A stretch of DNA of 64,000 nucleotides from a virus. The notes below the pieces were generated by a model. The model saw only the letters and a list, made by a program, of their open reading frames with translations. It was not told where the DNA came from and made no database searches. The stretch lies in IMG/VR virus record IMGVR_UViG_3300036770_007621, one strand, 5' to 3'. Shown in pieces: positions 14,416 to 34,299 of this stretch. Every line of letters starts with the position of its first letter. Positions within the stretch are counted from its first letter, which is position 1. The translations under genes were made by a program, and so were the position numbers.

Positions 14416-15189
14416 CTAATCATAAAAGAAGCCAGAGTAGTTTTCTACTGGACCTACTCCACGAATTCCTGCATCGTTATTAAATAATCCTACTAAAGGT
14501 ACTATATCTTTGTTTTCAGCAGGTTGTACAGGTCTATTATAATTTTCTCTAGTAGGAGATTGATCATTTATATACACATACAATGCATCCATAGGATATT
14601 GCCTTGTAGGAGTTAAATATGGGGCGAATGATCCTCGTCTGCCTTCATCTAAAAAAGTGTCTCTATTATCTGAAATATATTCTCTTTGATTAGATACAAT
14701 ATTAGATCCATCTAATTTAGACATTAAATTATCTTTTTCTAATTTAGAGTTTCTAATTAATTTTTTAAACAAAGTAACGACTTTAGGATCTAAACCAACT
14801 CCAAATCCTAATGAAACGGCTTCATTAATAGCATCTTCTGGGTCCATTCCTAAATATTTTGTTTTAAATAATCCAATTAATAATCCAGTGCGGTCTTTTC
14901 CTGCATGACAATGTACGAAAGTAGGAGCATTATCTAATAAAAGTTCTTTTAGATTAAATTTTAATAATTTGAAAATATCTTCATATAAAGAATCAAATTC
15001 AATTGGAATAATAACTTGTTCAATATCTAATAGTTTACAAGCTCTTGAAATTCTATCAGCATCTAGTTGATCTAAGCTAATAATTTTATTAATTTTTAAC
15101 TTTTCTTTTAATAAACGAACATCGTCAGGGCTAGGAGCACTGCCTCGAAATAATAAATTAGGGATTACTTCTACAAAGCGATGTATCAT
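14416..15189 (-). CDS. Protein tyrosine/dual-specificity phosphatase
   Basis: Catalytic CX5R motif FVHCHAGKDRTG; LFRGSAP and KIISLD motifs. Confidence 0.9.
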   Translation of the reverse strand: MIHRFVEVIPNLLFRGSAPSPDDVRLLKEKLKINKIISLDQLDADRISRACKLLDIEQVIIPIEFDSLYEDIFKLLKFNLKELLLDNAPTFVHCHAGKDRTGLLIGLFKTKYLGMDPEDAINEAVSLGFGVGLDPKVVTLFKKLIRNSKLEKDNLMSKLDGSNIVSNQREYISDNRDTFLDEGRRGSFAPYLTPTRQYPMDALYVYINDQSPTRENYNRPVQPAENKDIVPLVGLFNNDAGIRGVGPVENYSGFFYD

Positions 15190-16313: not shown

Positions 16314-17369
16314 TCAAGCAAATTTAAGTAAAAATTTTCTACGATTAGAGTTAATTGCAGCAGAAGTTAATTCTGTAATAGATGACTTTTTATTCAGTAA
16401 AATTTTTGCATTTATTTGATATTCTGGAGAGTCTTCTATTTTATTATTAAAATAATTGATATTTTTTTGTATAATTTCTTGTGCGGCTTGAACTGCTAAA
16501 TATTTTGGAGCTGGGAAAGAAAAATTAATTTCTACTTTATTATTGTTTGAGTGAATGCTACAATTAGAAGAGAGTTCTTGTTCTAAATTAAAAGCCAATC
16601 TATTAGCAAATTCTATATTATTAACTATATCAGGAGAGCTGATTTTAATTAAAGCATGATAAGTTGGAATATCAGATGCTGCAGACTCAAATTGTTTTAT
16701 TAATTGTTCTACTTCATTAATATTTGAAGGCTCTTCTGATAATTGTTCTAATTCAGCCATAAAATTTTCTAATTGTGGTTGAGATAAATTTTTTTCTTCA
16801 ATTATTTTTTCTATTTTTTGTTGATATTTAGGTAGATTATATTTTTTATAAAAATTTGTTAATCTTTCAGAATAAACTTCTGGAGGTGCAAGATAGTATT
16901 TAGCAGTTCTTTTTGATTTAGGGTCGCTAGACTTTTCTAATCCAGTTAATAATCCTTTAGAAAAATGGTAAGGATCTGGTTTAGCAGATTTAACTGCTTC
17001 CCAGGCATCTGGATATTTTTTCTTAATTAATTGTACATAGTCTCTGACTCCTGATTTTAAATCAGGGTAAGCTTTATATTTATTTTTAATTTTTTGACCA
17101 GGAATACCTGAAGTTTCTTCTACTGTTTTTTCATCAAAAACATATGGGTCATTACCAGTGGCAACAATATGACCTACGTTATAATTGCTAATTAATTGAG
17201 CGTCACCTATTTCAAAAGCACTATGTGATAATAATAAAGTTAATTGTTCTTGGGTAGGAGGGACTCCTTCTATTTCAGCAAATACATCTGCAATAGTTTT
17301 AGCTAACTCCTCTATAGGAACAGGGGTTTTTTGTCTAGGAACAGATGGTCCGGCGCCTAATTTAAACAT
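16314..17369 (-). CDS. GH73/glucosaminidase-like peptidoglycan hydrolase (putatively virion-associated)
   Basis: HSAFEIG...YNVGHI...KYKAYPDLKSGVRDYVQLIKKKY...YYLAPPEVY parallels the GH73 LExG / NNxFG / FxxY / YATDPxY motifs. Confidence 0.6.
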   Translation of the reverse strand: MFKLGAGPSVPRQKTPVPIEELAKTIADVFAEIEGVPPTQEQLTLLLSHSAFEIGDAQLISNYNVGHIVATGNDPYVFDEKTVEETSGIPGQKIKNKYKAYPDLKSGVRDYVQLIKKKYPDAWEAVKSAKPDPYHFSKGLLTGLEKSSDPKSKRTAKYYLAPPEVYSERLTNFYKKYNLPKYQQKIEKIIEEKNLSQPQLENFMAELEQLSEEPSNINEVEQLIKQFESAASDIPTYHALIKISSPDIVNNIEFANRLAFNLEQELSSNCSIHSNNNKVEINFSFPAPKYLAVQAAQEIIQKNINYFNNKIEDSPEYQINAKILLNKKSSITELTSAAINSNRRKFLLKFA

Positions 17370-17379: not shown

Positions 17380-19569
17380 TTATCTAATTCTAGATGCTAT
17401 TCTATATAGACTGGTCGATAAGTTTTTGTTTTTATTTTGAATTAATTTAGCGTATTTCTTCATAAATGAAGAAACTAAGATAGGTGACTCAGAGGATAAA
17501 GATTGTAAAGTGTGCATAAAATTACTAATAAAAGCATTTGCTTCAAGTTCGTTGATTGGTATTTTTGATAAAACTGTTGCAGTAACAAAAATTGAATCCT
17601 TTGGCAGAGAGAAAATTTCTCCAGAAATTTTAAAAACTTTACTATTTTCATCTGACATATTTTCGACAAGCGTAGCTTTGATAGGATCAGATGTCCCCAC
17701 AATTGCATCAAATATTCCTTTAATAGAATATTCTATATCGTTAAAACTTTCAATATCTTTAAAATAATCATTTAATTTTATTTTATTATTAAGATCTTCA
17801 ACGACAGCCTGAATTTCTTTACCTTGAACATTTGCTATAAGTAATATGCTGTCTAAATTATTACTATCAGCAAATATATCTTTTTTAATTAAACGCTGAT
17901 CGGGTTCAAGGACATCGTCAGAGTTAGTAGCTGGGTTTTCTTTAGCGGGTTCTAATTGTTCTTCAGGAGAGGGAGTATTTTCTTTTTCTTTTTCTTCTTT
18001 TGGATATATTAAATCATTTTTAGTTACAGAAGCTAAATAATTATTATATTTTATAGTAATTTTTCCAGTCACTGGATTATCATTAACTATTTTAACTGAG
18101 ATATTTTCTTCTAAATCTCTAGTATCATTGTCAAAATTATTTTGTTTATCGATTAAAGATTCAGCAGATCTACTTTGTAAAAAAATATTTTTTTTAAAAA
18201 TATTTTTTTTAATTAATATATTATTCTCAGATTTAGGAGAATCTGGAGGCGATACCTCTGGAGGAGGTGCTTCTGGAGTGGGTTCTACGGCAGGCTCTAC
18301 GGCAGGCACTTGTGGTTCTGCAGCAGCCTCTTGAACTTGTTTAGCGCCTTCATTTATTTGCTTAGCTGGAGTTGCCCCATCAACTTGCAATTCACTTACA
18401 TCAACGTCTATCTCTTCACCTTCACTTTCTAATACAGCAGTATTATCATCATTTATCCTAGAAATAACTGCTTCTCTTTCATCACTTGTTTTTACAGGTG
18501 TACCAGGGGTTAAATCGCGTTGAGGAGAAGTATTTTGGTCAGGCAATAAAGAAGGCTGTGCCGCAGGGGCGCCTTTAGGTGCTGGTGGAGGTGCTACTAC
18601 ACCCGCATCTGCAACATTTGCTGCTAAAGCAGCAGAATCTACTGTCGGTTCAGATTCAGATTGCTGTATTGCCTCTGGAGGAGCAATATCTTCCAATATA
18701 TTATTTAAATTACTTTTATGTTTTTGAAAATTAGCGCTATTAATTACGCCAGAATATCTATCAACTTGATCAATTATTGTTTTAGAAGCTTTGACATAAT
18801 CTGCAATTTTTCTTTCTGCTCTAGCTCTAGACATAATATTGAGCTGATTTTGCAATACATTTAACAATCTATCTGAAGCAGATAAAACAGATCTAATATC
18901 GTTTCTTAAATCTTTACTTATTCCTGGTTGAATTCTTTCCCATAAATCTAAAGCAGATTTTCTTTGCATTTTAGAAAATAAAGAACGAACCCAATTAATT
19001 AATCCTGCTTTTTTATAAAAGCCAGCTTTTTTAAATAATTTTTTGTTTTTAGAATAAGCAGTAACGGCAGGAACATCTTGTGATGGAATATATTTTGGAT
19101 CTTTTGATTTAGTTAAAAATCTTAATACAGATTCTGCTTGTTCTTCGGTTAATGGGTCTGCTAGAGAAGAAAAATACTCTGCATTCAAAGAAACTATGAT
19201 ATGTTCTGCATTTTTTAATAATTGTGCACAGTATAGTACTTTTACATAAAACTGTTCTAAGTAAGAGATAGAAACTAGATATTCTTTATTTTCATAAGCA
19301 TCTTTAGCATTATCCAATATATTTTTAATAGGACCTGATGCTTCTGATAAATATGGTATTTGATCTCCAATTTTTCTATTTAATAGAGTAGCTCTAACTT
19401 GATTATCTACTTCACGCAATTGGTTCATCATTGTACCAAAGACATTGCTTTTGCCTTCTAAATATCTGCCGCCTAAGAAAGTAAACTCTCTGAATCTATC
19501 AGAACGAGATCGTTCTTGGGCTACTTTTAATAAATTTTGATTGCGTGAAATAGTTGAAGATCTAGACAT
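17380..19569 (-). CDS. Paralog 1 of a four-gene family (729 aa), putative internal head protein
   Basis: Shared N-terminal domain (LRxxDNxVRATLL, NKEYLVSISYLEQFY, FYKKAG, SALDLWERI) and C-terminal ESPILVSSFMKKYA motif. Confidence 0.8.
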   Translation of the reverse strand: MSRSSTISRNQNLLKVAQERSRSDRFREFTFLGGRYLEGKSNVFGTMMNQLREVDNQVRATLLNRKIGDQIPYLSEASGPIKNILDNAKDAYENKEYLVSISYLEQFYVKVLYCAQLLKNAEHIIVSLNAEYFSSLADPLTEEQAESVLRFLTKSKDPKYIPSQDVPAVTAYSKNKKLFKKAGFYKKAGLINWVRSLFSKMQRKSALDLWERIQPGISKDLRNDIRSVLSASDRLLNVLQNQLNIMSRARAERKIADYVKASKTIIDQVDRYSGVINSANFQKHKSNLNNILEDIAPPEAIQQSESEPTVDSAALAANVADAGVVAPPPAPKGAPAAQPSLLPDQNTSPQRDLTPGTPVKTSDEREAVISRINDDNTAVLESEGEEIDVDVSELQVDGATPAKQINEGAKQVQEAAAEPQVPAVEPAVEPTPEAPPPEVSPPDSPKSENNILIKKNIFKKNIFLQSRSAESLIDKQNNFDNDTRDLEENISVKIVNDNPVTGKITIKYNNYLASVTKNDLIYPKEEKEKENTPSPEEQLEPAKENPATNSDDVLEPDQRLIKKDIFADSNNLDSILLIANVQGKEIQAVVEDLNNKIKLNDYFKDIESFNDIEYSIKGIFDAIVGTSDPIKATLVENMSDENSKVFKISGEIFSLPKDSIFVTATVLSKIPINELEANAFISNFMHTLQSLSSESPILVSSFMKKYAKLIQNKNKNLSTSLYRIASRIR

Positions 19570-19600
19570 GTATAATCCCTTTTATCATATAAGGTAATAA

Positions 19601-22168
19601 TCACATTATTCTTTTAGAAATTTTCATTAATTTTTGAGATAAATGTTTGTTGTTGGTAAGACGAGCATATTTCTTCATAAATGAAGAAACTATAATAGGT
19701 GACTCATGAGATAATGCTTCTAAAGTGTAAATAAAATTGCTTTGTTTGTTTTGGTTGTCCTTATTTTGTTTATATAAAGCAATAGGAATTTTCTTTTCTG
19801 GATTAGTTAATATTTTATTTCCATTAGCTTTAAAAGTTATAACTCTACCTTTATCATCTTTTTCAATATTTTCAAGATCATCAGGTAATGTGTAAGTTAA
19901 ATAATATTTTCCTATGTCATAAGTTTTTAAATCTACTGCGGCAACTTTTACAGGTATTCTGTCTGGTATTTTGGATTGATATTTATCAAATAATTGTTTA
20001 GAAATATTTTCCCCATATTCATTAAATCCAAAAATTTCTATTCTATGATTAACAACATCAGATTTATTAATTTCTACATCGCTATCAATATTATAAATCG
20101 GTATTTCGCTTTCTAATTGAGATTCATCTATCTCTTTTTCTGGTTCTTTTCCTTTTGTTGAAATTTCTACATCGCTACTTAAAGTAACTATCAAATATTC
20201 ATTTTGCATTTGTACTTTAACATTAACTCCAGTAAGATCGCCCCCGCTAAAAATATCAATATTTTCTAAAATAATTTTTCTTTCTTTTAAAGCCCTTCTT
20301 AATTTGCCAACAACTATTCTTATAGGATATGAGCTAAAAGTTAAATTAATTATTAACTTAGCTCCTTTTTCAGGCAGCGTATCAGGTATTCCAGACTCTT
20401 TATCAAATCTATTTTTAATTGAATTTAATTGTTCTAGTGTTACGCCATTAATTTCAGCATTTATACTTTTAATATTGCAGGTAGTAAACATACCTGCATT
20501 TTTATTTAAGTCTAGTTTATTATATTTAATTTTTATTCTACCAATATTAGATCTAGCTCCAAGGACCTCTACCTGACTACCAAGATCTAATTCTACTTCC
20601 GTCATATTAGTTTCATCTACAGGAGCAGGTGCGTCGCCAGTAGGATTTCCTTCAGGAGATGCTGGTTCGGCTGGTGAGGCACCACCAGCTTCACCGTCAG
20701 ATCCTCCACCAGCTTCTCCACCAACACCAGCTTCTTCACCAACACCAGCTTCTCCACCAGCAGCTTCTCCACCAGCAGCTTCTGGAGCAGCTGGTACGCT
20801 TGGTTGTCTAGGAGGAGGTAAATTTACTCCGCCATTTTCAACAATTACTTGAGCATCTGCAGCTTCTAATGGTATTTGCGCTACAGGAACAACTTGCTCT
20901 TGACCATTTTCCTTATTTTCTACAGTAGCTTGATTATTATCTACACTTTTTACAGTAAACAAGCCTCTAATTCCATTTATAACACCCCTAAAAAATTTGC
21001 CAATTAAACCTTTAGCATCATTAGGAATAGCTGCTGCTGGTGGTGGTGTAGCAGGATCAGCGGCAGCTTGAGCTTGTTGTTGTTGAAGTTGTTGCTGTTG
21101 AGGAGCATTAGCTGCAGGAGCACTAGTATTAGTTGGATTTTCTACTTGTGCCGCTAATTGAGGAGTAGGTTGAGCTACATTAGAATTATCTTTAGCTGCT
21201 TGTGCTTGCGCAGGAGTAGCCATTTGCTCTAATATTTTATTTAAACTGTCTGTATGCTTATTAAAATTTGCATTAGTAATAGTTCCGGAATAATTAGTAA
21301 CTTTATTAACTAAGTCTTGAGAAAAACGATCATAATCTGCTATTTTTCTACCTGCCCTAGCCTCAGACATTTTATTTAAATTAGTTTGAAAATTATTTAA
21401 TAACCTATCAGAAGCAGATAATACTGTCCTGATATCGCGACTTAATTGCTTGCCAGCTCCAGGTTGAATTCTTTCCCATAAATTCAAAGCAGATAATCTA
21501 GAATCAAATAACTCTTTTACCCAATCAATTAATCCAGCTGTTTTATGAAATTGAGCCTGCTTCCTCATATTATAATTAATAGAAGATAGAGCAGCTAAAT
21601 CTTTTGCATTCTGCTCTTTCATTCTCTTAATTTCTTCTCTGACTTCTGGAGAAAGATATTGTTCATTTTTTTGTTCTATTAAATAATTATAAATTCTTCT
21701 TTTTTGATCATCGGTTAAATCTTCTGCTAATGCTTTAAAATATTCTGCATTTAAATTTTTATTAATTTCACTTACATTTTTTAATACTTGAGCACAATAT
21801 AAAACTTTTTGATAAAATTGCTCTAAATAAGAAATAGAAACTAAATATTCTTTATTTTCATAATTTTTCTTGGCAGATTCCAATAAATCTTTTGCAGAAA
21901 CTTCTCCAGCATATGGAATTTGATCTCCATATTTTTTACCAAGAAGAGTAGCTCTGACTAAATTGTCAGCCTGTCTTAATTGACCCATCATAACGCCAAA
22001 AATTTGTGTTTTATTTTCTAATCTTTTACCACCAAAATTTGACCATTCCAAAAACCTATCCGTCCAACCCCTATCTTGAGCAGTAACTATAATTTGGTTT
22101 GAGGTTTGGGCTGAGCTATAAACTTTTTGACTTGCTTTATAAACATTTAATGATGAAGTTCTAGACAT
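19601..22168 (-). CDS. Paralog 2 of the four-gene family
   Basis: Start refined to MSRTSS (ATG 22168, AAGGA SD); same N-terminal domain and ESPIIVSSFMKKYA C-terminus. Confidence 0.8.
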   Translation of the reverse strand: MSRTSSLNVYKASQKVYSSAQTSNQIIVTAQDRGWTDRFLEWSNFGGKRLENKTQIFGVMMGQLRQADNLVRATLLGKKYGDQIPYAGEVSAKDLLESAKKNYENKEYLVSISYLEQFYQKVLYCAQVLKNVSEINKNLNAEYFKALAEDLTDDQKRRIYNYLIEQKNEQYLSPEVREEIKRMKEQNAKDLAALSSINYNMRKQAQFHKTAGLIDWVKELFDSRLSALNLWERIQPGAGKQLSRDIRTVLSASDRLLNNFQTNLNKMSEARAGRKIADYDRFSQDLVNKVTNYSGTITNANFNKHTDSLNKILEQMATPAQAQAAKDNSNVAQPTPQLAAQVENPTNTSAPAANAPQQQQLQQQQAQAAADPATPPPAAAIPNDAKGLIGKFFRGVINGIRGLFTVKSVDNNQATVENKENGQEQVVPVAQIPLEAADAQVIVENGGVNLPPPRQPSVPAAPEAAGGEAAGGEAGVGEEAGVGGEAGGGSDGEAGGASPAEPASPEGNPTGDAPAPVDETNMTEVELDLGSQVEVLGARSNIGRIKIKYNKLDLNKNAGMFTTCNIKSINAEINGVTLEQLNSIKNRFDKESGIPDTLPEKGAKLIINLTFSSYPIRIVVGKLRRALKERKIILENIDIFSGGDLTGVNVKVQMQNEYLIVTLSSDVEISTKGKEPEKEIDESQLESEIPIYNIDSDVEINKSDVVNHRIEIFGFNEYGENISKQLFDKYQSKIPDRIPVKVAAVDLKTYDIGKYYLTYTLPDDLENIEKDDKGRVITFKANGNKILTNPEKKIPIALYKQNKDNQNKQSNFIYTLEALSHESPIIVSSFMKKYARLTNNKHLSQKLMKISKRIM
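20680..20790 (-). repeat. AGGEAG-type coding repeats
   Basis: ccagcttctcca units; EAAGGEAAGGEAGVGEEAGVGGEAG. Confidence 0.75.
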
Positions 22169-22212
22169 AAATTTTTCCTTATAAAAATCTAAATATAATA
22201 TCAGATTATTAA

Positions 22213-25200
22213 TCAAACCATCATAGAAGCTATCTTTTTTAATTTATATGATATTTTTTTATTTTTCTTATTAATTAAATTAGCGTACTTCCTAATAAAA
22301 GAAGCTACTATAATTGGAGATTCATAAGATAATTTTTCTAAAATATAAACAAAAGAAGCTTTTTTAGCGTTTTTGAGATCTTGCTCAGGAATTAAGGCAG
22401 TTAAAGTAGTTGGAGTATCAGATGTAGGATCTGCTATATCTGCCTCAACTAAATAATAAACTATATTATCTATATTTTGCTTTTCTTTAATAGTTACTGT
22501 GATTGGATCATTTATATTATTAAGTATTTCTGGCAAACTTTTATGTTGTGGTTTTAAATTGTTAATAAAAATATTTTTACTAATACTTATTTTATCATTT
22601 ACAGAAAATTTTATTTCTGATGAGATACTATCTGCTATAACTCTATAGTTATCTATTATTTTTTGTTGATAATCTTTATTATTTGAACGCATCATCAATT
22701 CTTTAACTATTGTCTGAATTTCCCAAAGATGAGCGGTTGGTTCTAAGTTAAAAAACTTATAAGCTTTCTGTAATGGTGTAAGATCTTCTTCAGGCTCTAC
22801 AGATGGAGCTACGGCAATTGTAGACTGTACACTTTGAGATCCATCAGGAATAGATTCAGAACCACCTTGAGATGATTCAAATTCTTGATAAATTTCTGGC
22901 ATCATACTTCTTATGACATTAGGAAAGGCTCGTTCAGTAAAATTTTCAAATAACCCATATAATGGGCCATATGTTTTATCTTGATAAAAAATAATAAAAT
23001 CATATTTATCATTAGATGATGATAAAGAATATAATTCTGCTTGCAAATAATCCGGATTATTTACAATATTTTCTTTTACTTCTCTTTTTACTTGTTCTTT
23101 TATATTTTTAACATCTTTAACATCTTTTAATTCTAAAATATTTTGTAAAGATGGCGACATTCCGGTTGTCAAATTTTCAAAAAAATATTCAGTAGGTATT
23201 TTTACATTTATTTTATTTGTTTTTAATTTTTCTTTAATTATATTATATAGTTTTTGTGCGGGACTTTGTTGTACAACGCTCGGTACACCTGAACTCTCAT
23301 CAGGAATCGATACACCAACCTCACCACTGCTTAAAGTTGCAAATTGATTTAATTTGTTAAAACTAATTTCTATTTTAGGAGAATCAAATTTAGGTCCTAA
23401 TACTGATTTTAAATCATTAATAATAACAAATGCTTTTTTGTTTTGTTCATCAATTGATTCTATTTTAATTGTAACAATGTTTTTATCACTTAATGTAAAA
23501 TGACTCAACTTCTCTGTACTTAAATCGTCCTCTGTTACTTTTTTATATCCCTTTTTTTCTAGATATAATTGTAGCACATAATTATTTATTGCCGAGAAAC
23601 CTTCTTTAGTATTAAAATCAAATAATTCTGCAACAGAAATACTTAAAATATCTCCTACTTTAAACTTAGACTCTAATCCCTCTGCTCCAGGAATATCTGA
23701 TGGCTCTTGACTTGGAACAGGAGTTTTAAATTTATTAAATTTATTTCTTATAAATTTATCAAAAAATTTATCATATAATTTTTCATATTCTTGTAAAGAG
23801 TATTTTTTGCTTTGTTCAGGATCTTTTGCAATAATATCTTTAACTCTATCAATAGCGGCAAGTAATTCTGCTATCGGAATAGCTAAATTTGGATTTTCTA
23901 TGTCATCATATTTATTTAAATTATTTAAAATAAAATTATTTTTATCTTTAATATACTGATCAAGATCTGCAACTCCTGATACATCAGGAGTTATTCCCGC
24001 GAGATTTGCTAATTTGCCAAATCTAATTCTTGCCTCATCTATTTCAATATTTTCTGGTGGTAAAGATAATTGTTTGCCATCAGGAGTAATGACGGAAATT
24101 TGATTACTTTCCCTATCAATTCCTTGTATCTTAACTTCCTGCTCTTTACCATCAATAGTAGCCTTGGCTCCAGTATTTGCAGGTATTCCAATAAAATCTC
24201 TAAGAGAAATAACCGCCCTAGCAAACCAACTTTTATTAGGAATCGGTGGAACTGCATCTTGTAATGCTTTAGATGCCTCTGCTACAACCTCTACTGTAAC
24301 AGGAGATAATTCTCCTGCTTGTTGTTTTGATAATTCTTCAATATTATCTAATTTTTGTTGCGCATCTTGCGCAGCATTAATAAGACTAGCCGCTGCCGCT
24401 TGTACTTGCTCAACCTTAGCCTTACCCATATTCTTAATAGATTTAATTAACCTATTAAAAAATCCAGCAGCCTCTCTAGCTTTAGGCTGATCTTGTTCTT
24501 GATTTAATTGTTCTTCAACTCGTTGTAAATCAGGTAATACTGCCTGTAATTGTTCAGGGGTTTTTCTATCTAAATTTTCTAAATTTGCTTTAACTTCTGG
24601 CTTAATAGATAAATTAAGATCATTTAAATCAATTTCTATACTAGGAATGTTGGCTTCAGCTTGACCTACTTGTCTAACTTGCTCAATACTCTGCTGTAAA
24701 TTACTTAAAGAAGCCGCAGCTTGTTGAGCAGCTTCTTTAATTTCTGGAGTTGCTGGATTAGCAGCAGCTAATTGTTGTTGAGCAGCTTGTATTTGTGGTT
24801 GGGCTGCAACTACTGCTTGTACTACAGCAACTGTGGCGGCTGGAGTGGCAGGAGCAGCTGCAACTTGAGCAGGAGAGGGCGCTGGAGCAGAAGTATTAGA
24901 GTTATTTTTAACTTGAGCGGACAATTGTGAGCTTGGTGCGCTGGTAGTATTACCAACTTCTTTTTGTTGTTCTGGAGGAACAACATTATTTAAAATATTT
25001 TGCAATTGATCTGCATACTGACTAAAATTAACTCTATCAATAGAAGAAGAGTATTGATTTACTTGATCAACAATATTTTTAGATGTTTTAACGTAATCTG
25101 CTACTTGTCTATCTATTCTGGCTTGAGACATCTTATTAAGATTAGTTTGTAAAACATTTAATAATCTATTAGATGCTGATAAAACTATTCTTAAATTTTT

Positions 25201-25938
25201 TTTTAAGTCTGTGCTTGCTTTAGGATAAATTTTTTCCCATAAATTTAAAGCAGATAATCTAGAACTAAAAAGTTGTTGTATCCAATCAGTTAAGCCAGCA
25301 GTTTTATAAAATTGTCCATGTTTTTGTATTTTATATTTGGTGTTACTGGTAACATTACCAAGATCTCTTTGTATGTTTTCTTTTAAATCTTTTAATTTTT
25401 TTCTTTCATCTTCAGAAAGATATTCTTCACCTTTAGCTTTAGCTAAATAATTTTTGATTCTCTCTTTCTGTTCATCGGTCAAATTCTCTGCTAAAGATTT
25501 AAAATATTCTTGATTTAAACTAATTGTTAATGAGTCTAAACTTTTTAATAATTGTGCACAGTATAATACTTTTTGGTAAAATTGATCTAAATAAGAAATT
25601 GCTAACAAATACTCTTTGTTATTATAATTTTGTTGAGCTAAATCTAATACTTTTTTAATAGGTAAATCTCCAGCATATGGTGCTTGATCGCCCATTTTCT
25701 TTCCTAATAAAGTAGCTCTAATTCCGTTATCTACAGAACGCAAATTATTCATTATTAATTGAAATAAATCGCTTTTTTTCTCTACTCTAGCTCCACCAAA
25801 ATTAGCCCACTCTTTAAATGATTCGGTCCATCCCCAATCTTGAGCCAACTTGTTAAATTTATTTTGATTAGAAAATTGATATTTTTTTTGCATTTTGTCG
25901 TTTCCAAATAAAACTCTACTAAATACTGTTTTAACCAT
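22213..25938 (-). CDS. Paralog 3 of the four-gene family (1241 aa)
   Basis: Same N-terminal domain; ESPIIVASFIRKYA C-terminus. Confidence 0.8.
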   Translation of the reverse strand: MVKTVFSRVLFGNDKMQKKYQFSNQNKFNKLAQDWGWTESFKEWANFGGARVEKKSDLFQLIMNNLRSVDNGIRATLLGKKMGDQAPYAGDLPIKKVLDLAQQNYNNKEYLLAISYLDQFYQKVLYCAQLLKSLDSLTISLNQEYFKSLAENLTDEQKERIKNYLAKAKGEEYLSEDERKKLKDLKENIQRDLGNVTSNTKYKIQKHGQFYKTAGLTDWIQQLFSSRLSALNLWEKIYPKASTDLKKNLRIVLSASNRLLNVLQTNLNKMSQARIDRQVADYVKTSKNIVDQVNQYSSSIDRVNFSQYADQLQNILNNVVPPEQQKEVGNTTSAPSSQLSAQVKNNSNTSAPAPSPAQVAAAPATPAATVAVVQAVVAAQPQIQAAQQQLAAANPATPEIKEAAQQAAASLSNLQQSIEQVRQVGQAEANIPSIEIDLNDLNLSIKPEVKANLENLDRKTPEQLQAVLPDLQRVEEQLNQEQDQPKAREAAGFFNRLIKSIKNMGKAKVEQVQAAAASLINAAQDAQQKLDNIEELSKQQAGELSPVTVEVVAEASKALQDAVPPIPNKSWFARAVISLRDFIGIPANTGAKATIDGKEQEVKIQGIDRESNQISVITPDGKQLSLPPENIEIDEARIRFGKLANLAGITPDVSGVADLDQYIKDKNNFILNNLNKYDDIENPNLAIPIAELLAAIDRVKDIIAKDPEQSKKYSLQEYEKLYDKFFDKFIRNKFNKFKTPVPSQEPSDIPGAEGLESKFKVGDILSISVAELFDFNTKEGFSAINNYVLQLYLEKKGYKKVTEDDLSTEKLSHFTLSDKNIVTIKIESIDEQNKKAFVIINDLKSVLGPKFDSPKIEISFNKLNQFATLSSGEVGVSIPDESSGVPSVVQQSPAQKLYNIIKEKLKTNKINVKIPTEYFFENLTTGMSPSLQNILELKDVKDVKNIKEQVKREVKENIVNNPDYLQAELYSLSSSNDKYDFIIFYQDKTYGPLYGLFENFTERAFPNVIRSMMPEIYQEFESSQGGSESIPDGSQSVQSTIAVAPSVEPEEDLTPLQKAYKFFNLEPTAHLWEIQTIVKELMMRSNNKDYQQKIIDNYRVIADSISSEIKFSVNDKISISKNIFINNLKPQHKSLPEILNNINDPITVTIKEKQNIDNIVYYLVEADIADPTSDTPTTLTALIPEQDLKNAKKASFVYILEKLSYESPIIVASFIRKYANLINKKNKKISYKLKKIASMMV

Positions 25939-25990
25939 AGAAAACCAAAAACCCCTTTACAGAGGCTTTTGTTTTTATTTAAGTATTTTT

Positions 25991-28900
25991 TTATTTATTT
26001 AATAGTCTTAATCTTCTTAAAAAAGATTGAACAATTATAGGGGATTCTTTATTTTTAATTTGATTAAATGCTTTCTTATAGTCTAACTCATCCTCATCTT
26101 CTTCTTCAAATTCTTCTTCCTCTTCCCCCAATCCTAATTCTTGTAAAAATTCTCTTTCTAAATCTTCATCAGGACCTTCCCCTTCTCCTTCTCCTTGATC
26201 TTCTTCCCTTTCTTCTCCCGCAACCTCTTCTTTTTCTACCTCTTCTTCACTTACTTGTTTTCTTATATTTTTTTTATTTTCTTCAACTATATTTTTTAAA
26301 ATATTATCTAAATATTCAGCTTTTTCGCTTTCTGATTTATTTTCTATGTCAGTTTGAATTTTTTCAAATTTATTTGGAATCAACATGTTTAATAAATTTA
26401 ATTTTTCATCAATAGTCATTTTTTTAGCAGGAGTTCTAGTTTCAACAATTGGGGAAGGCTTAATAGAAACTGCAGGCTCATATCTATAGTCTTTATTACT
26501 TAAATAGTTTTCTAAAGTTGTTAAATTTCCTGATATTTGTTTAGTCACTAGACGGCTTTTGATAACTTCATCCTCACCTTTTTCTTTATATTTTGCAGTC
26601 TCTTCTAATGATAACTCAAAATTTAAACTATTTTTATCTTTATTAAAAGTTAAAATTTTTATTTTTTTTGGTTGAGTTTGCATCGTTCCTAAAATTTTAA
26701 GCTTAGGAATATTTATTTTTTTTGTTTCAATTGGAGCATCTTCAAAAGAAAAAGTATCTCCTGCTTTAATATTTTTTAATATTTCTTTTAATTGAGACTG
26801 GTTTGTAACCCCTTGCACTGATTCTACTGCTGGAGGAACTTTTTGTTCTGCAGGAGGAGAATCCTCCTCTGGAGAAAGAGGCGCTTCCTCATCTCTTTCT
26901 GTAAGTGTAGGCGGAGATGATGTAAATATTACTTTTTGTATTTTATTATTTTCTAAATCATTTGCATTAACTGTAATAGTATGTGTACGATTACCATCAG
27001 TAAATGAAACTCTGGCAAATTGCTCATTTTCGTTTTCAATTAAAGTAGTATTTAAAATAAATCCAAAATATTCATCATTCTCAACAGGAGTATACTTAAT
27101 AGCATCATCATTTTTAATTTCATTTAAATTACTATATTTTGTTAAAGTAAATTTGCTTGAATCAAAAAATATAGCAAATCTATCAAGATTTTTTACTGCT
27201 TTTGCTGGTGACTGCCCACCTACTTCTGCTGGCGACTCCCCTGCTAGTGGTGGTTGCTCGCCTCCTGCTACTGGTGGTTTTGCTGCTGGTTCAATCACTT
27301 TAACCAAATAATATTGTTTGGGATTAATTGTAAATATCGGGTCTATATTATCAAATCTTACTTCAATGCTTCCAGGATTATTATACTCTGCTCTATTTAC
27401 ATTAGTAACTGTTCCAGTTAAAATATTATTATTATTATTTTGCGCCTGTGCCAAAGAAACAAGCCTGTATAATTCCATGTATGCTGTAGCAGTTTTAATA
27501 ACTCCACTAGTATTATCAAATGTAATTCTATCTCCTACGTTATAATCTTTAGTATAAATATATTTTGGTAAAGCTGTTTTTTGATCGAGTAACTCTAAAT
27601 GCTGTATAAAAATACTAAAGTTTCTACGACCAATTAAATATTTATGTTTATTTTCTAATGCACTATCAGAAACATTACAAACATATCTTAAAAATGGAAA
27701 ATCTACTTGAACTTCTACTGCTGATATAATATTTGTAACTTTTCCTATTAATTGGGATGCAATTACATTATCGTCAAAATCTTGTTGTCTAATAAAATTA
27801 AGAAAATCTTGAGAAATTCCAGCAACTTTACCCTGTACTATTGTGTCTGGCATAAAGCTAGAAATGTCTTTTTTAGTAGAGGCGGCTGATGGAGCAGGCT
27901 GTTTCTGAGGAGGAGTAGCAGTTTTAGGCGTAGCTCTAATTTTTGATGTTAAATCGTTCTCATAAATCACTACCTCATAGCCAGGTCCGCTTGGATGGTT
28001 TTCAAAATTAAAATAATAACGATTGGAAATCGTATCGCCCTCTTGTGCTGTGTCTACTTTAACCAAAGTTCCATTACCCCAATCTGGTTCTTCAATATAT
28101 TCAATACTGGCATTTTTAAGCCGCTTTTCAATCTTATTTTCAGTCGTACCACCAGGAGCACCAGCACCAGCACCAGCACCAGCACCAGCACCAGCACCAG
28201 CACCAGAAGCACCAGCACCAGAAGCACCAGCACCAGCAGGAGCAGCAGGAGTATTTGTTGAAAACAAATTTTGTTGAATCAAATTGTCTTTAGAAGCAGA
28301 TTCAGGGGATACTTCATCATAACCGTCAGCATTTTTATAATGTAAAAATACATTATTGTTATTGTTTTTATCTTCAGAGAATTTAACGGTCTTGTTAATA
28401 TTGATTTTGCTTGTATCTATGCCAAACATAGGACCTATAGTTCTTAACGCCAGTGGATTTATTACATGCTCTAAATTAATATTTAAATCTGTTACAGATT
28501 GCTTATACTCAATCGCATCTATTAAGTCTTTTAATTTATCTTTTGAAATTAATACGGGGGGGGTGGATCTTTCTTGAGTAGCTATATATCTATTGTTGTT
28601 TCGATCAAACACAATAGCAATAGGTCCTGGTTTTAAACCTTTTAAAATGCTTTTAACACCTCTACCAACTGCTTTGGCAGAATACCCGTACATTACATTG
28701 TTTGATAATGCACTTGTAATTTCATCAATTTTTTTCTGAGCTTTTATCTGCTCATCTTCTGCAGTTATATTTTTAATTATCTGTTTAGTAAAGATATTTG
28801 CCTTGGTGTTTCTAGGTAGTAAGAGTGCTTCCCAATCTCCTCTAGTTTTATCTGCTATCTCTTTTTTTAAAATATATCTATATGGTCTATTATCAGGACC

Positions 28901-30583
28901 AGTTATCTCAACAACATCTTCCTTTTTAAAAGTCTTTCGTAATTCTGCTGTTATTCTGCCACCTTTAACAACAGTCTTTGTCTCTGGCTCTAGTTCCGCA
29001 GGTGCTGCTGCCGCTGCCGGTTCTGCTGCCGCTGGTGCTGCCGCTGCTCCTGCTGCTGCTTCCGGTTCTGCTGCTTCCAGTGGAGGTGAGGGCTTCGCAG
29101 CCGCCGCAGCTTGATTATTTGTATTTTTAACTTGAGTAATTGCATCATCACTTGCCGGAGCAACAACATTTTTATTTGTATTTTGACTAGCTAATTTATT
29201 TGTAAAAAATGTTTTTAATTCTGCTAAACTTGTACTATATATTGGTCTGTTTGTATCAGATTCTGGCAAATTACTAATTTTACTTGCTAAAGAATCTAAT
29301 AAAGAAATAATGTTAGTAACTTCTTCTTGAGTATAATTACCTTCTTTATTAATTAAATCTTTAGCTTCATTTAAACTCTGTTGAATATCAGTAATATTTT
29401 GTGGAGTAACAGGTGCTTGACTTAATTGCTGCCGGACTACAGTAGCACGAGCCAACTCACTATCACTAGCACGAGCTTGAGTTACTGGGACAGTTACATT
29501 TTTACCCTCTACCTCTACTACTACCTCACCAACATTTGGTCCAGGAGCAACCACCATTCCAGTAGCAGCTTGACCATTTACAGGTAAAACAACTGTATTC
29601 CCAGGACTAACGTCAACAGGCAATTGACTTTGTAAAGCTGTTGCAGTAGCAGAGTTAGTATTTACTTTAGGAGCAGCTGGTCTAGATGCATCATCTGCAT
29701 TTTCAACCGCAGCACCTAAAGAAGCAGCACTAGGAGCCGTAGCTTGCTCTTTAGCTTCTTGCATTACCGTTTCAGGAATTTTAGTTCCTAGTACTTCTAA
29801 GATCTGACTCTTATATGTATTTAAATTTAAACTATTTAGTTTACCACTGTAAACTTGAATTGCATTTACCGTGGCATCAGCAAGTAATACATAATTAGTT
29901 ATGTGCCTTTCTGAACGATATCTAGACATCCTTACTAAATTATTTTTAATAGTATTTAAAATATTATTGGTAATAGAATATGCTTGTGTTAATACTGCGC
30001 GTAACTCTTTGGCAGCAGCTGGATTAATACTAGACCATAACTCTAACGCCGATTTGCGATCATTAAAAAATCCACTATTGAAAATATGTGAAATAAAATC
30101 AAAAAATGCCGCAGTCTTTACAAAATTATGATCACTAGCTGTAGCTTTCTTGCTATTTAAATAATTACTAACTTGCTCCGCTTGCTCTGGTGTAATGTTT
30201 CCAGCCAAAAATTGTAAATATGCCTTGTTTAAAACAGTTAAATCTTGTTCAATTTTTTTAAATGTTTGACATGTATATGCAATCTTAGAATATAATTGAT
30301 CTAAATCTGATATTACTTGCAAATATTCTAAATTGTCTAAATTCTTTTTAGCACTTCTAAGTAACTCGTCTGCTGATACGTCGCCACCAAAAGGCATCGC
30401 CACGCCAACCGTCTTGCCAAGCAAAGTTGCTCGCACCTCATTATCGTGCTCTCGCAACCTGTCCATCATATCCCTAAAAATATCTACTTCGTTCTCAATC
30501 TTGCGAGCCCCAAAATTAGTCCATTCACGAAATAAGTCAGATAAAGATCTTTTTTGTGCAACTTTGTACATTTTTAACCTCAA
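25991..30583 (-). CDS. Paralog 4 of the four-gene family (1530 aa)
   Basis: Diverged N-terminal domain (LREHDNEVRATLLGK, FVKTAA, SALELW); poly-Glu tract; shortened ESPIIVQSFLRR C-terminus. Confidence 0.8.
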   Translation of the reverse strand: MRLKMYKVAQKRSLSDLFREWTNFGARKIENEVDIFRDMMDRLREHDNEVRATLLGKTVGVAMPFGGDVSADELLRSAKKNLDNLEYLQVISDLDQLYSKIAYTCQTFKKIEQDLTVLNKAYLQFLAGNITPEQAEQVSNYLNSKKATASDHNFVKTAAFFDFISHIFNSGFFNDRKSALELWSSINPAAAKELRAVLTQAYSITNNILNTIKNNLVRMSRYRSERHITNYVLLADATVNAIQVYSGKLNSLNLNTYKSQILEVLGTKIPETVMQEAKEQATAPSAASLGAAVENADDASRPAAPKVNTNSATATALQSQLPVDVSPGNTVVLPVNGQAATGMVVAPGPNVGEVVVEVEGKNVTVPVTQARASDSELARATVVRQQLSQAPVTPQNITDIQQSLNEAKDLINKEGNYTQEEVTNIISLLDSLASKISNLPESDTNRPIYSTSLAELKTFFTNKLASQNTNKNVVAPASDDAITQVKNTNNQAAAAAKPSPPLEAAEPEAAAGAAAAPAAAEPAAAAAPAELEPETKTVVKGGRITAELRKTFKKEDVVEITGPDNRPYRYILKKEIADKTRGDWEALLLPRNTKANIFTKQIIKNITAEDEQIKAQKKIDEITSALSNNVMYGYSAKAVGRGVKSILKGLKPGPIAIVFDRNNNRYIATQERSTPPVLISKDKLKDLIDAIEYKQSVTDLNINLEHVINPLALRTIGPMFGIDTSKININKTVKFSEDKNNNNNVFLHYKNADGYDEVSPESASKDNLIQQNLFSTNTPAAPAGAGASGAGASGAGAGAGAGAGAGAGAPGGTTENKIEKRLKNASIEYIEEPDWGNGTLVKVDTAQEGDTISNRYYFNFENHPSGPGYEVVIYENDLTSKIRATPKTATPPQKQPAPSAASTKKDISSFMPDTIVQGKVAGISQDFLNFIRQQDFDDNVIASQLIGKVTNIISAVEVQVDFPFLRYVCNVSDSALENKHKYLIGRRNFSIFIQHLELLDQKTALPKYIYTKDYNVGDRITFDNTSGVIKTATAYMELYRLVSLAQAQNNNNNILTGTVTNVNRAEYNNPGSIEVRFDNIDPIFTINPKQYYLVKVIEPAAKPPVAGGEQPPLAGESPAEVGGQSPAKAVKNLDRFAIFFDSSKFTLTKYSNLNEIKNDDAIKYTPVENDEYFGFILNTTLIENENEQFARVSFTDGNRTHTITVNANDLENNKIQKVIFTSSPPTLTERDEEAPLSPEEDSPPAEQKVPPAVESVQGVTNQSQLKEILKNIKAGDTFSFEDAPIETKKINIPKLKILGTMQTQPKKIKILTFNKDKNSLNFELSLEETAKYKEKGEDEVIKSRLVTKQISGNLTTLENYLSNKDYRYEPAVSIKPSPIVETRTPAKKMTIDEKLNLLNMLIPNKFEKIQTDIENKSESEKAEYLDNILKNIVEENKKNIRKQVSEEEVEKEEVAGEEREEDQGEGEGEGPDEDLEREFLQELGLGEEEEEFEEEDEDELDYKKAFNQIKNKESPIIVQSFLRRLRLLNK
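28158..28250 (-). repeat. gcacca hexamer tandem repeat (Gly-Ala)
   Basis: Encodes GAGASGAGASGAGAGAGAGAGAGAG. Confidence 0.9.
28995..29110 (-). repeat. Ala/Pro/Glu-rich coding repeat
   Basis: EAAEPEAAAGAAAAPAAAEPAAAAAPAE linker. Confidence 0.75.
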
Positions 30584-30631: not shown

Positions 30632-33600
30632 TTATGGAGGAGGTGGCGCTTCTCCAGGTGGTGCCCCTAAATCTGGCGGAGGTCCTCCAGGTGGCGCCTC
30701 TCCAGGTAATGGTGCCCCTCCACCTGCACCCTCTTCCACCGGCTCTGGAATCTCGTCTTCCTCATCCAATGCACGCAATGTATTCAAATCCAATGCCGCC
30801 AATGCCGTCTTTTCTTTCTTGGAAATCTCTGATTGAATTGCTTCCTTGCGCATCTTGCGTACCTCATCGTCAAACTCTAATCCCAAAGAATGATACAATG
30901 TATGCAATGATGCCCGCTTCTGATCTCCCTCGCCCTGTGTCAAAGTACTTAATATGTTAATATAATCCCCTGTGTCAAACAAAGACATGTGATTCCATGT
31001 TATCTCAGGTACTATTAACTGCTTCTCTCCACCCGAATAATCATAAAAACCCTGAATCTTAGATATAGGTGCAAAAATCTTTCTCTTCAACCAACTAGAT
31101 AACATGTTCCTAAATTGCATGTACCTTTGACGTAATACATCCAATGCCACACCACCGTTGGCATATGTAGTGTCAGCTCCACCATCCATTATCACAGATG
31201 GTGCCTGTAACCCCGTATAAATCTCTTTGATCAATTGTGTTATGTCCCCAGAAATATCATAAATTCCTGCCCCATAACCCACTCTCTCTACCGTCACTCC
31301 CTCGTGCGTAAATACTTTAAAGTCCTTGTCGTATTGCGCTTCTTCAAAAATATTGCGCCACGCTTCTAAATCAGCAAAAGTAGGCTTGAACTCCGCTGAA
31401 CCTATCTTGACTAGGGTCAATGGATTTATCATATTGTCCGCTTGAGCGTATTTAGAATTGCCTTGAATCGTAATTTTCCCATTGCGTCGGGTCACAAACA
31501 ATCCAGTTGGTACCTCAAAACACCAAACTACACCATTATAGTCTTTTTCTATAATTCTGGCCCCGCCACCATTGTTATTTTTCTTTGGTAAAGAACTAAC
31601 GTTTGGCTCAACTCCATAATTTGTATCTGACCACATAACAATATATTCTGTGACAATTCTTTTATCAGATTTTGCAGCCGTACTAACACAAATATTTGGC
31701 ACATAACCTAACTTATAAACAAGCTCATATACATCGTCAGCTAATTGCTTAGAAACAGTAGAGTATCTATAATTTTTAGATCCAGTACCGTATTTACTAA
31801 ATCCTTCAGTACCATCACCTTTTACTAATGCTTCTAATAAAATAGACATTAATTCTGGTTTTAGTTCAAGTGTCCATCTAGGTAATTTTTTAAAGTGAGA
31901 AGATACTTGGTTATTTGTCCCTAACTCATTTGAAAAATGAGCAACAATATCTTTTCCATGAATTGATACGCTCCAAATTTCTTTAGGAGTCAAAGCAGAG
32001 TATCCTGTTCCTGCGGTTTTAATAAAATGATTTGCTTTTTTACCCATAAAAGTTGCAAATTTAGAAAATGCATCTTTCATATCTTGATAACAATCGCTAG
32101 AAGTTAATTGATTAACAGAAATAATTGCATCATATCTTCCGTTTTCAAAATTAGAATAAATACATCCTTCAGATGCCAAATAACCTAATACTTTTAAATA
32201 TAAGTCTGTAGGAATATTATGCCCACAAACATTAATTGATTCAGGATCATTAGTTAAATTAAAATTAGCTTTAGAGCTTAATTTGTAACCCTTCTTTTTA
32301 CTTAAAAGAGAGGATGCTGTTCTTTTCTGAAAATTACCCCATTTTCCATTAGTGCTTTCTTTTACCCACATCTTGTGGTTAGGTGTAACTAAACAGTCTA
32401 CTTTTTTACCAGTAAAATGAAGCATCTTGCCTTCGTAATGCGACATGTGCATCTCAATTGGCGCGTGATACTCTACCTGATTGTTTTGCGGATTCACACA
32501 TGCCACTTTGAACCCCTCTTTCATTGACAGTATTTTAATACTGTCTGGGCTCAAGTTTTTACTGTCTTGGTTCATATTTTTACTGTCTAGGTTCAATAAA
32601 ACGCCATTAACAAAATTTGAATTAACGTTAATATCTGAGGTAAAATGCAGTAAATCAGTGATTTTCTTGAATCCTTTGTCGGTTAGAACCTCTGTGTCTT
32701 CATCGTAACACTCCCTTAATTTATCAAATAACATAAGCTGCCTGAACACACACACAGGCAGACCGGTTCCTCTAATTTCGTATGGGCTAATTTTTCTGGC
32801 CAAGTGGGAGATATTATAATTTTCCAGCGGGATATTATCTCCACGTTTCACGGAGTCGATGATATGTTGATTTAGTTGTTTTTTCTGTTCGATATCGGCG
32901 GGTTTATTGGAGAAGATAATTTTCTTTAAATTTTCATCAGGGCGGAGCATGATGAGGGGTTCATCAGCGATGACGGTGCGTTTGACGACCATGTAGTCTG
33001 GGTTTTGGATTAGTAATCGATCCCATTTACCTTTAGTTTCATTTAATTCTGCGTAGATGAAGGATTCACCTAGTAGCCAATATTCTTGGGCTATTTGAAC
33101 GCAGATATTCATTAGATTAAGTTCTTCGATCATATCGTTGAAGAACTTTTCAATTTCTTTGTTAGGGCATTTGATGTTCATTTTGCTGATGGGGTAAGTA
33201 CTATGTAGATTGATAGCATTATGAACAAAAGGATTTAAAGCATAAAAGCTTCTGCACCAAGCATTAATAGTGGCACGGTCTCTTGGAAGATTAAGATTGC
33301 TATTAAGCCATAGAGGAGAATAGACTTCAGGAGTTTGTTTAACAGAGTCTCCATTACCTCCACGGAAGCCTCCACCTGTACCAACGACTTGACCTACTTT
33401 TTTAAAACCGATAGAAGAGACTACGTTTGAATTTTGGGTAGGAGTATAATTTTTAGATGGGGTAGCGGATCCATCACGAAAGAATCCTTGTTCTACTTCA
33501 TTGGCGAGATTATCTCTTCTAGATTGAGAGACACTTTGAGCCATGAGGGCACTGACTTGAGGGACTTGAGATTTATTTTGTAGATATTGTTCAGAATTTG

Positions 33601-33640
33601 ATGGACCTGTCCAAATCTTACCATTTTTTGAAATTGACAT
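30632..33640 (-). CDS. Portal protein, intein-containing
   Basis: Adjacent to the terminase; RKISPYEIRGTG portal-like motif; about 584 aa after intein removal; acidic/Pro-rich tail. Confidence 0.75.
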   Translation of the reverse strand: MSISKNGKIWTGPSNSEQYLQNKSQVPQVSALMAQSVSQSRRDNLANEVEQGFFRDGSATPSKNYTPTQNSNVVSSIGFKKVGQVVGTGGGFRGGNGDSVKQTPEVYSPLWLNSNLNLPRDRATINAWCRSFYALNPFVHNAINLHSTYPISKMNIKCPNKEIEKFFNDMIEELNLMNICVQIAQEYWLLGESFIYAELNETKGKWDRLLIQNPDYMVVKRTVIADEPLIMLRPDENLKKIIFSNKPADIEQKKQLNQHIIDSVKRGDNIPLENYNISHLARKISPYEIRGTGLPVCVFRQLMLFDKLRECYDEDTEVLTDKGFKKITDLLHFTSDINVNSNFVNGVLLNLDSKNMNQDSKNLSPDSIKILSMKEGFKVACVNPQNNQVEYHAPIEMHMSHYEGKMLHFTGKKVDCLVTPNHKMWVKESTNGKWGNFQKRTASSLLSKKKGYKLSSKANFNLTNDPESINVCGHNIPTDLYLKVLGYLASEGCIYSNFENGRYDAIISVNQLTSSDCYQDMKDAFSKFATFMGKKANHFIKTAGTGYSALTPKEIWSVSIHGKDIVAHFSNELGTNNQVSSHFKKLPRWTLELKPELMSILLEALVKGDGTEGFSKYGTGSKNYRYSTVSKQLADDVYELVYKLGYVPNICVSTAAKSDKRIVTEYIVMWSDTNYGVEPNVSSLPKKNNNGGGARIIEKDYNGVVWCFEVPTGLFVTRRNGKITIQGNSKYAQADNMINPLTLVKIGSAEFKPTFADLEAWRNIFEEAQYDKDFKVFTHEGVTVERVGYGAGIYDISGDITQLIKEIYTGLQAPSVIMDGGADTTYANGGVALDVLRQRYMQFRNMLSSWLKRKIFAPISKIQGFYDYSGGEKQLIVPEITWNHMSLFDTGDYINILSTLTQGEGDQKRASLHTLYHSLGLEFDDEVRKMRKEAIQSEISKKEKTALAALDLNTLRALDEEDEIPEPVEEGAGGGAPLPGEAPPGGPPPDLGAPPGEAPPPP
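31457..32710 (-). mobile_element. Intein (418 aa) with LAGLIDADG endonuclease, in the portal
   Basis: Starts CYDEDTEVLTDKGFK, ends VWCFEVPTGLFVTRRNGKITIQGN followed by Ser+1; VLGYLASEGC and LLEALVKGDGT motifs. Confidence 0.92.
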
Positions 33641-33774: not shown

Positions 33775-34299
33775 ATGGATAATTATTTAAAATTTTTAAT
33801 TGAGTTGTATGCTGATTCTAAAATAAAACAAATTAGAAAAAATAGTTTTAGGGATGAGAAGGCAGAAATTAAGTTAATGTTAGAAAATTTAGTTAATAGT
33901 TGGTTTGATAAAAATTATGATGAATTAAAAAGCAGTATTAATTTTGATAAATTAGAAAAAATTATTGATAAGGATGCTTACATTCAAAATCTTATTGATC
34001 CTGGATTGAGGTTAGAGGCTCGCAGGAAATTATTTTTAATAAAGCGATTAGCCGATTACAGGGGTGAGAGGTGGTATGAGGAGGAGTCGGTAGATAGTCC
34101 TAGGACATATACAAATGTGGGAAAAGCTATTTCAGGATTATTGATGGCGGTAACTTCTCTTGGGGAGGATAGGGTATTTAGTATGGTATCTCCTTTAGTT
34201 AGAGAGATTGAGAATTTAGATACTCCTACAAAGGCTGCTATTTGGGTAGCTCCAACGATACTTGGCATGATGATTGATGCTTTCAAAAGATTAAAGTGA
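33775..34299 (+). CDS. Hypothetical protein (174 aa), antisense to the cluster
   Basis: AGGAG SD before the ATG; no overlapping long minus-strand ORF. Confidence 0.75.
   Translation: MDNYLKFLIELYADSKIKQIRKNSFRDEKAEIKLMLENLVNSWFDKNYDELKSSINFDKLEKIIDKDAYIQNLIDPGLRLEARRKLFLIKRLADYRGERWYEEESVDSPRTYTNVGKAISGLLMAVTSLGEDRVFSMVSPLVREIENLDTPTKAAIWVAPTILGMMIDAFKRLK

Follow-up and report, generated by a model that had tools for sequence, protein, structure and literature searches.

The DNA examined here, called the window throughout, is a 64,000-nucleotide stretch of IMG/VR virus record IMGVR_UViG_3300036770_007621, an uncultivated phage (361,490 bp, 33% GC). Between its portal and prohead protease genes lie four consecutive large open reading frames (ORFs), designated paralogs p1 to p4, with p1 nearest the portal gene. 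They belong to a previously unannotated family of head-module genes that we term X. X is conserved in a large clade of uncultivated jumbo phages from freshwater and groundwater, where it immediately follows the portal gene, and the four window genes are lineage-specific tandem duplicates of it. The ancestral X is a basic protein of ~450 amino acids (aa) in which an elongated, all-helical N-terminal bundle of ~280 aa is joined by a proline-rich, disordered tether of ~115 aa to a basic three-helix motif of ~50 aa. In the clade of the window phage the tether has become a site of insertion for long and highly variable middles. X proteins may be internal to the capsid and possibly ejected, with the variable middles meeting host components; going by the sequence evidence, we give this reading about an even chance.

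Conserved ends of the four paralogs and the X family

An earlier sequence-only reading of the window had described four consecutive genes of 729, about 855, 1241 and 1530 aa sharing an N-terminal domain and a C-terminal motif, and every motif that it quoted is present in an alignment of the four ORFs. The first three sizes stand; p1 is most likely 1526 aa long and starts at ATG 30571, because the family N-terminus is M-x-K-x-A-Q. The four ORFs are consecutive and all on the minus strand (25991-30583, 22213-25938, 19601-22216 and 17380-19569), and common to all of them are a helical N-terminal domain (N-domain) of ~280 aa and a C-terminal helical motif. Six-frame searches of the phage's own genome with the N-domains gave matches at these four places only, with E-values among the four of 1e-48 to 4e-90 and identities of 39-53%. 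Hidden Markov models of both ends likewise matched nothing in the genome beyond the paralogs. The C-terminal motif is found in 4/4 paralogs and, as had been noted, is shortened in the portal-proximal copy, p1; two orthologues of p1, P0015 and that of L013, are equally truncated. Ahead of the truncated motif p1 has a Glu/Asp-rich tract of ~70 aa (residues ~1434-1501, window ~26070-26270), which is longer still in P0015. The motif K-[TSVEK]-A-Q occurs nine times in the ~110,000 aa of the genome, seven of the nine in head-region proteins (window 1-38547), and among the sites are two at paralog N-termini, in different paralogs, and two within the protease/scaffold protein. K-x-A-Q was considered as a protease code and rejected, since the protease/scaffold sites are not conserved in relatives.

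When a profile of the four N-domains was searched against 1.84 billion representative proteins, 307 matches (themselves cluster representatives) were obtained, of which 231 have E<=1e-10. With few exceptions they are 390-570 aa long, typically ~450 aa, start with M-x-K-x-A-Q-K-R and end in the same ~50-aa motif. Within this motif a Glu is conserved in 93% of sequences, a Pro two residues on in 94%, and K-Y-A in 81-98%. Both ends were present in 130/143 X representatives. The linker between them has a median length of 115 aa and consists of 18% proline, and the median isoelectric point (pI) of typical members is 9.1. Linker length ranges from 31 to 1200 aa; outside the window's clade it exceeds 300 aa in two proteins only. 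The two conserved ends together are the whole ancestral protein. The termini had been proposed to be packaging or ejection tags, a description that does not suit ends that form a complete protein of ~450 aa, that carry no cargo in 128/130 representatives and that occur on no other protein of the genome.

Structure prediction with AlphaFold2 (AF2) depended on the depth of the alignment. An alignment of 126 sequences yielded a model of p4 in which the N-domain (residues 20-300) is all-helical and residues 672-728 form three C-terminal helices. The predicted local distance difference test score (pLDDT) is ~90 over residues 20-300 and 680-729, and the predicted template modelling score (pTM) is 0.49; the middle was not modelled. 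With an alignment of four sequences the pLDDT was 45 and the model unusable. Pfam and PHROGs searches with the four paralogs and 50 X members returned scattered single hits and no consistent family, and three ESM Atlas feature searches found nothing.

X occurs within a recurrent block of genes: large terminase subunit (TerL), portal, X, peptidoglycan hydrolase, a ~130-aa gene, a 246-aa gene, Tyr phosphatase, a 216-aa gene, a ~50-aa gene and protease/scaffold. The same order is seen in the related contigs L005, L010, L012, L008 and L013, unrelated samples among them, and X in the block of the unrelated samples is a single gene of 433, 905 or 1255 aa. It lies directly downstream of the portal gene in the window, L005, L007, L010 and L012. 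Comparison of copy number across related contigs, which had been suggested as a check, gave exactly one X gene, of ~410-560 aa, in 58/58 of the loci found in IMG/VR, on contigs of up to 447 kb and always next after the portal gene, and four copies in the window's clade only. The family is common in freshwater viromes. The 433-aa form is on a 472-kb contig. A scaling of X length with capsid or genome size was considered and rejected: forms of 412-433 aa occur on contigs of 447-472 kb, and X length is therefore unrelated to genome size. X was not found in 185,579 prokaryotic species genomes, which yielded no prophage copies and no clue to the host.

Duplication of X and exchange of the middles

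The four-copy array is restricted to the window phage and its close relatives. The same four genes are present in L013 and in contigs L007 and L008, the latter two from one sample; when IMG/VR was scanned with the N-domains of the window paralogs, no additional relatives with four copies came up. A maximum-likelihood tree of N-domains recovers the four-copy clade as monophyletic (100/100), with a long stem and the topology (p1,(p2,(p3,p4))). Each paralog groups with its own orthologues, which indicates that the duplications predate the radiation of the four-copy clade. The expansion by gene duplication that the sequence-only reading had proposed is thus borne out by the tree: three duplications separated p1, then p2, then p3 and p4. 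That reading had also remarked on an increase in length toward the portal gene, a trend that is not conserved. In L013 the lengths of p1 to p4 are roughly 1900 aa (an ORF span that includes an assembly gap), 1054, 860 and 900 aa, and in another relative p1 has 1916 aa and p4 1126 aa. Since paralog lengths are this unstable among relatives, the gradient is incidental. The gap in L013 is a run of N (L013:3300-3700) in a Gly/Ala-rich, low-complexity linker of p1, and is not a frameshift.

The middles of the four window paralogs were said to be unrelated, and by BLASTP and phmmer they show no mutual similarity, except for one short element in the middles of p2 and p3 that is borderline (independent E-values 0.007-0.02). 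This element consists of a short amphipathic helix (G-F-F-x-R-L-I-x-S-I-K type) and, after it, a small module that looks beta-structured; it lies at p2 residues ~505 and ~575 (window ~24200-24430) and at residue ~395 of the 871-aa p3 ORF (~20980-21040). In addition, a p3 module of ~230 aa is found inside the p2 orthologue P0009, indicating that modules also move between paralogs. A crude segmentation by order and disorder divides the middles into ordered stretches of 40-250 aa with low-complexity linkers between them. Net charge is -19 to -33 in the middles, which are acidic, and +7 to +14 in the basic ends (C-terminal motif, +7 to +10). The linkers of the window's clade are enlarged to acidic strings of folded-looking modules, 380-1200 aa long, with the tether as the insertion site. 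A Pfam DnaJ domain was searched for in p2 and not matched at E<=0.1.

The flanking DNA is ~96% identical in the window phage and L013, and blastn leaves most of the p1 middle and parts of the p2 and p4 middles unmatched. At the protein level identity falls abruptly from 96-100% in the ends to 15-60% in the middles, with insertions and deletions (indels). A segment of the p2 middle (~22600-24250) is present as a different allele in L013, L072 and sequencing run X5; its synonymous divergence (dS) from L013 is ~1, which argues for replacement by a distant allele. The p3 and p4 middles are collinear with those of L013. By pairwise NG86 comparison, the p3 middle (residues 482-805) gives a nonsynonymous divergence (dN) of 0.279 and a dS of 0.153, a dN/dS ratio (omega) of 1.83 with a bootstrap confidence interval (CI) of 1.35-2.82, and a p4 segment (residues 542-680) gives an omega of 3.08 (bootstrap CI 1.18-15.7). 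The ends are under purifying selection, with omega of 0.17 in the N core and 0-0.12 in the C-terminal motif.

The alleles also appear in other combinations. L072 joins the p3 middle of the window to the p2 middle of L013, and the cassettes therefore reassort. Contigs from an independent freshwater study carry the alternative p2 cassette between window-like flanks, and in other runs coverage falls over the variable parts. The runs containing this phage (X1-X9) come from groundwater or freshwater sites. A diversity-generating retroelement was considered as the source of this variation and rejected, since no reverse transcriptase (PF00078) match was found in the genome; the variation spans ~1 kb with indels, unlike the short, adenine-specific variable repeat of such elements.

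Gene order around the paralogs

Features of the head region are listed in Table 1. On the minus strand the order of genes is large terminase, HNH endonuclease, portal, the four large ORFs, a 351-aa protein, three small genes, Tyr phosphatase, a second HNH endonuclease and a 1582-aa prohead protease/scaffold, which ends the conserved portal-to-protease block. TerL has only 25% identity to its Bacillus siphophage counterparts, and a profile of the prohead protease domain found no usable match in the PDB.

Table 1. Head-region features of the window, with the parts of each paralog
Feature	Coordinates	Strand	N-domain	Middle	C-terminal motif	Remarks
Large terminase subunit (TerL)	35037..36896	-				
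Portal protein	30632..33640	-				with LAGLIDADG intein; directly upstream of the paralogs
Paralog 1 (p1), 1526 aa	25991..30571	-	~29747-30571	~26081-29746, acidic, modular	~25994-26080, truncated	from ATG 30571; TTG at 30583 also a possible start
Paralog 2 (p2), 1241 aa	22213..25938	-	~24964-25857	~22369-24963	22216-22368, three-helix	
Paralog 3 (p3), 855 aa	19601..22168	-	~21194-22090	~19754-21193	19604-19753	from ATG 22168
Paralog 4 (p4), 729 aa	17380..19569	-	~18670-19536	~17536-18669	17383-17535	
Peptidoglycan-hydrolase-like protein, 351 aa	16314..17369	-				directly downstream of the paralogs
Tyrosine/dual-specificity phosphatase	14416..15189	-				same block in every relative examined
Prohead protease	8223..12971	-				split by intein; fused to a long scaffold-like C-terminal region

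Over its full length the 351-aa protein is homologous (E 1e-42) to the glucosaminidase protein (PF01832) that L005 encodes at this position. The catalytic domain of the hydrolase that follows X differs by lineage, glucosaminidase PF01832 versus SLT PF01464, and the C-terminal region is retained despite this swap at a fixed head-module position (loci compared: window 16314-17369, L005:11306-12319, L012:10631-11788 and L010:13768-15015). The tyrosine/dual-specificity phosphatase is a candidate packaged enzyme.

The head block is unusually rich in selfish elements, with inteins and homing endonucleases together. Inteins of the LAGLIDADG/Hint type interrupt both the portal and the prohead protease genes of the window. 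The portals of L005 and L010 are without an intein and have 615-620 aa; L010 has an intein in the terminase instead (1314 aa). The homing genes of the head module comprise two HNH endonucleases (12979-13578 and 34291-35034) and one GIY-YIG homing endonuclease (3932-5140).

Possible roles of X and comparison with known head proteins

If X proteins are internal to the capsid, the two conserved ends would place the protein in the prohead, beside the portal, the DNA or the inner surface of the shell. X would stay in the filled head and exit with the DNA, alongside the neighbouring peptidoglycan hydrolase and phosphatase, and the variable middles would be the parts that contact host components. The protein would then be a capsid-carried anchor with a payload inserted mid-protein. 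This reading is favoured by the fixed position of X in the portal-to-protease block, by the conserved adjacent hydrolase and phosphatase, which are plausible ejected enzymes, by the helical ends, whose basic charge fits a site facing the DNA or the portal, and by the diversifying, allele-swapping middles, which imply host contact. The proposal of a conserved anchor with a variable middle is retained to this extent: the ends are under purifying selection, and the middles, encoded in a head-morphogenesis block, are hypervariable and exchanged, with dN/dS >1. Its second part, that the middles carry effectors, found no match to an enzyme or effector domain. A more specific proposal casts X as a capsid-carried scaffold by which uncultivated jumbo phages deliver a payload, held in the disordered tether of a two-part anchor (N-terminal helical bundle and C-terminal three-helix motif). 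The cassettes of the four copies would be exchangeable and of unknown fold, and diversifying selection would maintain them as alleles because their targets are host defences or components of the envelope, met immediately after ejection. X would then correspond to MuF toxins and T4 internal proteins, but with the payload in the middle. We offer this only tentatively.

A number of observations weigh against a capsid-internal, host-directed role. Searches with Pfam, PHROGs and ESM Atlas features detected no enzyme, effector or toxin domain in the middles. Fold searches (PDB by Foldseek and VIA wide, BFVD, AFDB clusters and ESM Atlas) returned generic helical bundles, the sole exception being an uncharacterised X member in BFVD. 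The cargo-less form is common, which shows that the ends serve some purpose in their own right, independent of any payload. The dN/dS estimates compare two allele classes represented by few alleles in AT-rich DNA. Moreover, dS in the p3 middle is 0.15 as against 0.03 in the flanks; this shows old alleles or recombination, so that relaxed constraint could account for part of the signal. A tblastn search of 50,697 phage records with the N-domain and a typical X member gave no match, that is, no cultured relative, and none of the RNA runs contains the paralog region.

X could instead be an accessory scaffold or prohead-core protein, whose N-domain oligomerises in the core or on the portal, whose basic C-terminal helices bind the inner shell in the P22 manner, and whose middles are tolerated spacers. 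The protease would cut at a conserved S/A/G-x-E before the C-terminal helices, and X would leave before DNA entry. Such a role would agree with the position of the gene between the portal, which it directly follows, and the protease/scaffold, and with the AF2 prediction of an all-helical protein with a separate C-terminal helical motif. A Glu stands ahead of this motif in 93% of members, and P3 is S, A or G in 92%, a pattern similar to the S/A/G-x-E sites cut by the prohead proteases of giant phages (PMC5694885, PMC10052503). However, the paralogs show no enrichment of [SAG]-x-E (observed numbers are about as expected), and the consensus derives from other giant phages and may not be that of this protease. 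T4 gp22 and P22 gp8 are acidic scaffolds that DNA displaces, whereas the typical X is basic (median pI 9.1), and the protease already carries a long scaffold-like region as a fusion. If the middles were passive spacers, dN/dS should not exceed about 1 and alleles should not be maintained, but the CI for p3 excludes 1; linker length also varies from 31 to 1200 aa without relation to genome size. Neither a profile search of the PDB nor three fold searches matched X to a solved scaffold protein. On balance we regard a scaffolding role as rather unlikely.

The same modularity of the middles, with ordered 40-250-aa segments between low-complexity linkers, could suit an external capsid decoration or fibre, in which the two ends would form a joint fold docked on the shell or at the portal vertex, with the middle looping outward as small binding domains that contact the host surface or environmental polymers. 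Allele exchange and dN/dS >1 are typical of surface-exposed phage proteins, and the two ends are always co-conserved; the pTM of 0.49 of the predicted model is compatible, as a weak inference, with their forming one unit. This appears unlikely to us, since Pfam and PHROGs detected no Ig-like, lectin, BIG or fibre domains, the helical and strongly basic ends better suit a DNA-facing interior, and the gene lies between portal and protease, near the hydrolase and phosphatase, rather than beside capsid or tail-fibre genes. Most X members, moreover, would display just a proline-rich loop. Improbable as well, and slightly more so, is the view that X is no virion component, and is instead a non-structural assembly chaperone or host-interaction protein that lies in the head operon by chance. 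The lack of homology to known structural proteins would allow this, as would the homing endonucleases, nucleotidyltransferase and phosphatase interspersed in the module. Its position between portal and protease, however, is invariant in all relatives examined, the genes are tightly packed and co-directional with head genes, and X is confined to phages (0 matches in 185,579 species genomes).

For the capsid-internal reading there are precedents in head-carried paralog families and in head-anchored variable proteins (PMC5694885, PMC10052503, PMC5576092, PMC5512222). Members of the phiKZ_IP family (PF12699) include phiKZ gp93-95, gp162 and gp163, and SPN3US gp53 and gp54 (PMC5694885, PMC10052503). 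Like them, the window genes are multi-copy paralogs in the head module of a jumbo phage, here between portal and prohead protease; their copy number is plastic among relatives, a conserved part is combined with a diverged remainder, and packaging and ejection are suspected. The window genes had accordingly been compared with phiKZ-like internal head proteins, but this assignment was not upheld: PF12699 had no match at E<=0.1 in the four paralogs, none in 50 X members and none in a six-frame search of the whole genome. Unlike phiKZ_IP proteins, X is conserved at both ends with a variable insert between them and is single-copy outside the window's clade. Furthermore, phiKZ_IP proteins have N-terminal propeptides that are removed at A/S-x-E, whereas in X the sole S/A/G-x-E conserved throughout the family precedes the C-terminal helices. 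MuF proteins are head proteins, of which SPP1 gp7 binds the portal (PMC5576092). In concept X resembles SPP1 gp7/MuF (PF04233; PMC5576092) and the "polyvalent proteins" (PMC5512222), in which a head-anchoring module is combined with variable domains delivered with the DNA, and like MuF it is encoded in the head module adjoining the portal gene. PF04233 was not matched in the paralogs, in X members or in a further search. Unlike MuF proteins, X has an internal variable region and a conserved C-terminus, and lacks both a toxin or enzyme domain and an evident immunity gene; X phages are large and apparently lytic, whereas MuF phages are temperate siphophages. Since no consistent Pfam, PHROG, PDB or fold match was obtained, X is not a member of phiKZ_IP or MuF.

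The P22 scaffolding protein gp8 binds coat through a C-terminal helix-loop-helix. X resembles P22-type gp8 in that its gene adjoins the portal gene and its predicted structure is an elongated helical protein with a small, basic, helical C-terminal element. It differs in having no sequence or structure match, in being basic overall, in the presence of a separate protease-fused scaffold and in its hypervariable middles. The ip loci of T-even phages are hyperplastic, and the T4 signal is a cleaved N-terminal peptide of ~10-20 aa on small proteins. X shares with the T4 internal proteins a putative conserved incorporation signal, payloads that are replaced between close relatives and a phage with a prohead protease. 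In contrast to the capsid-targeting sequence (CTS), whose role in T4 internal proteins is mentioned in PMC10052503, the conserved part of X is a 280-aa domain plus a 50-aa motif, forms a complete protein alone and is found on no other protein of the genome. The X locus may thus work like the phiKZ/SPN3US, MuF, polyvalent and T4 systems, yet it shows none of the matches by which members of these systems are recognised.

The X genes make up a head-module family that is widespread in giant uncultivated phages and has no annotation in Pfam or PHROGs. In the window's clade they provide a rare clean case of remodelling, in which duplication was followed by insertion into a disordered tether and by exchange of cassettes at the population level, with dN/dS >1. 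If X proteins are packaged and ejected, the variable cassettes would constitute a pool of unknown host-directed phage proteins, and the conserved ends would be candidates for a handle by which large capsids could be loaded with foreign proteins. If they are instead scaffold or core proteins, it would follow that assembly proteins can tolerate inserts of >1000 aa. Either outcome bears on the construction and contents of giant capsids.

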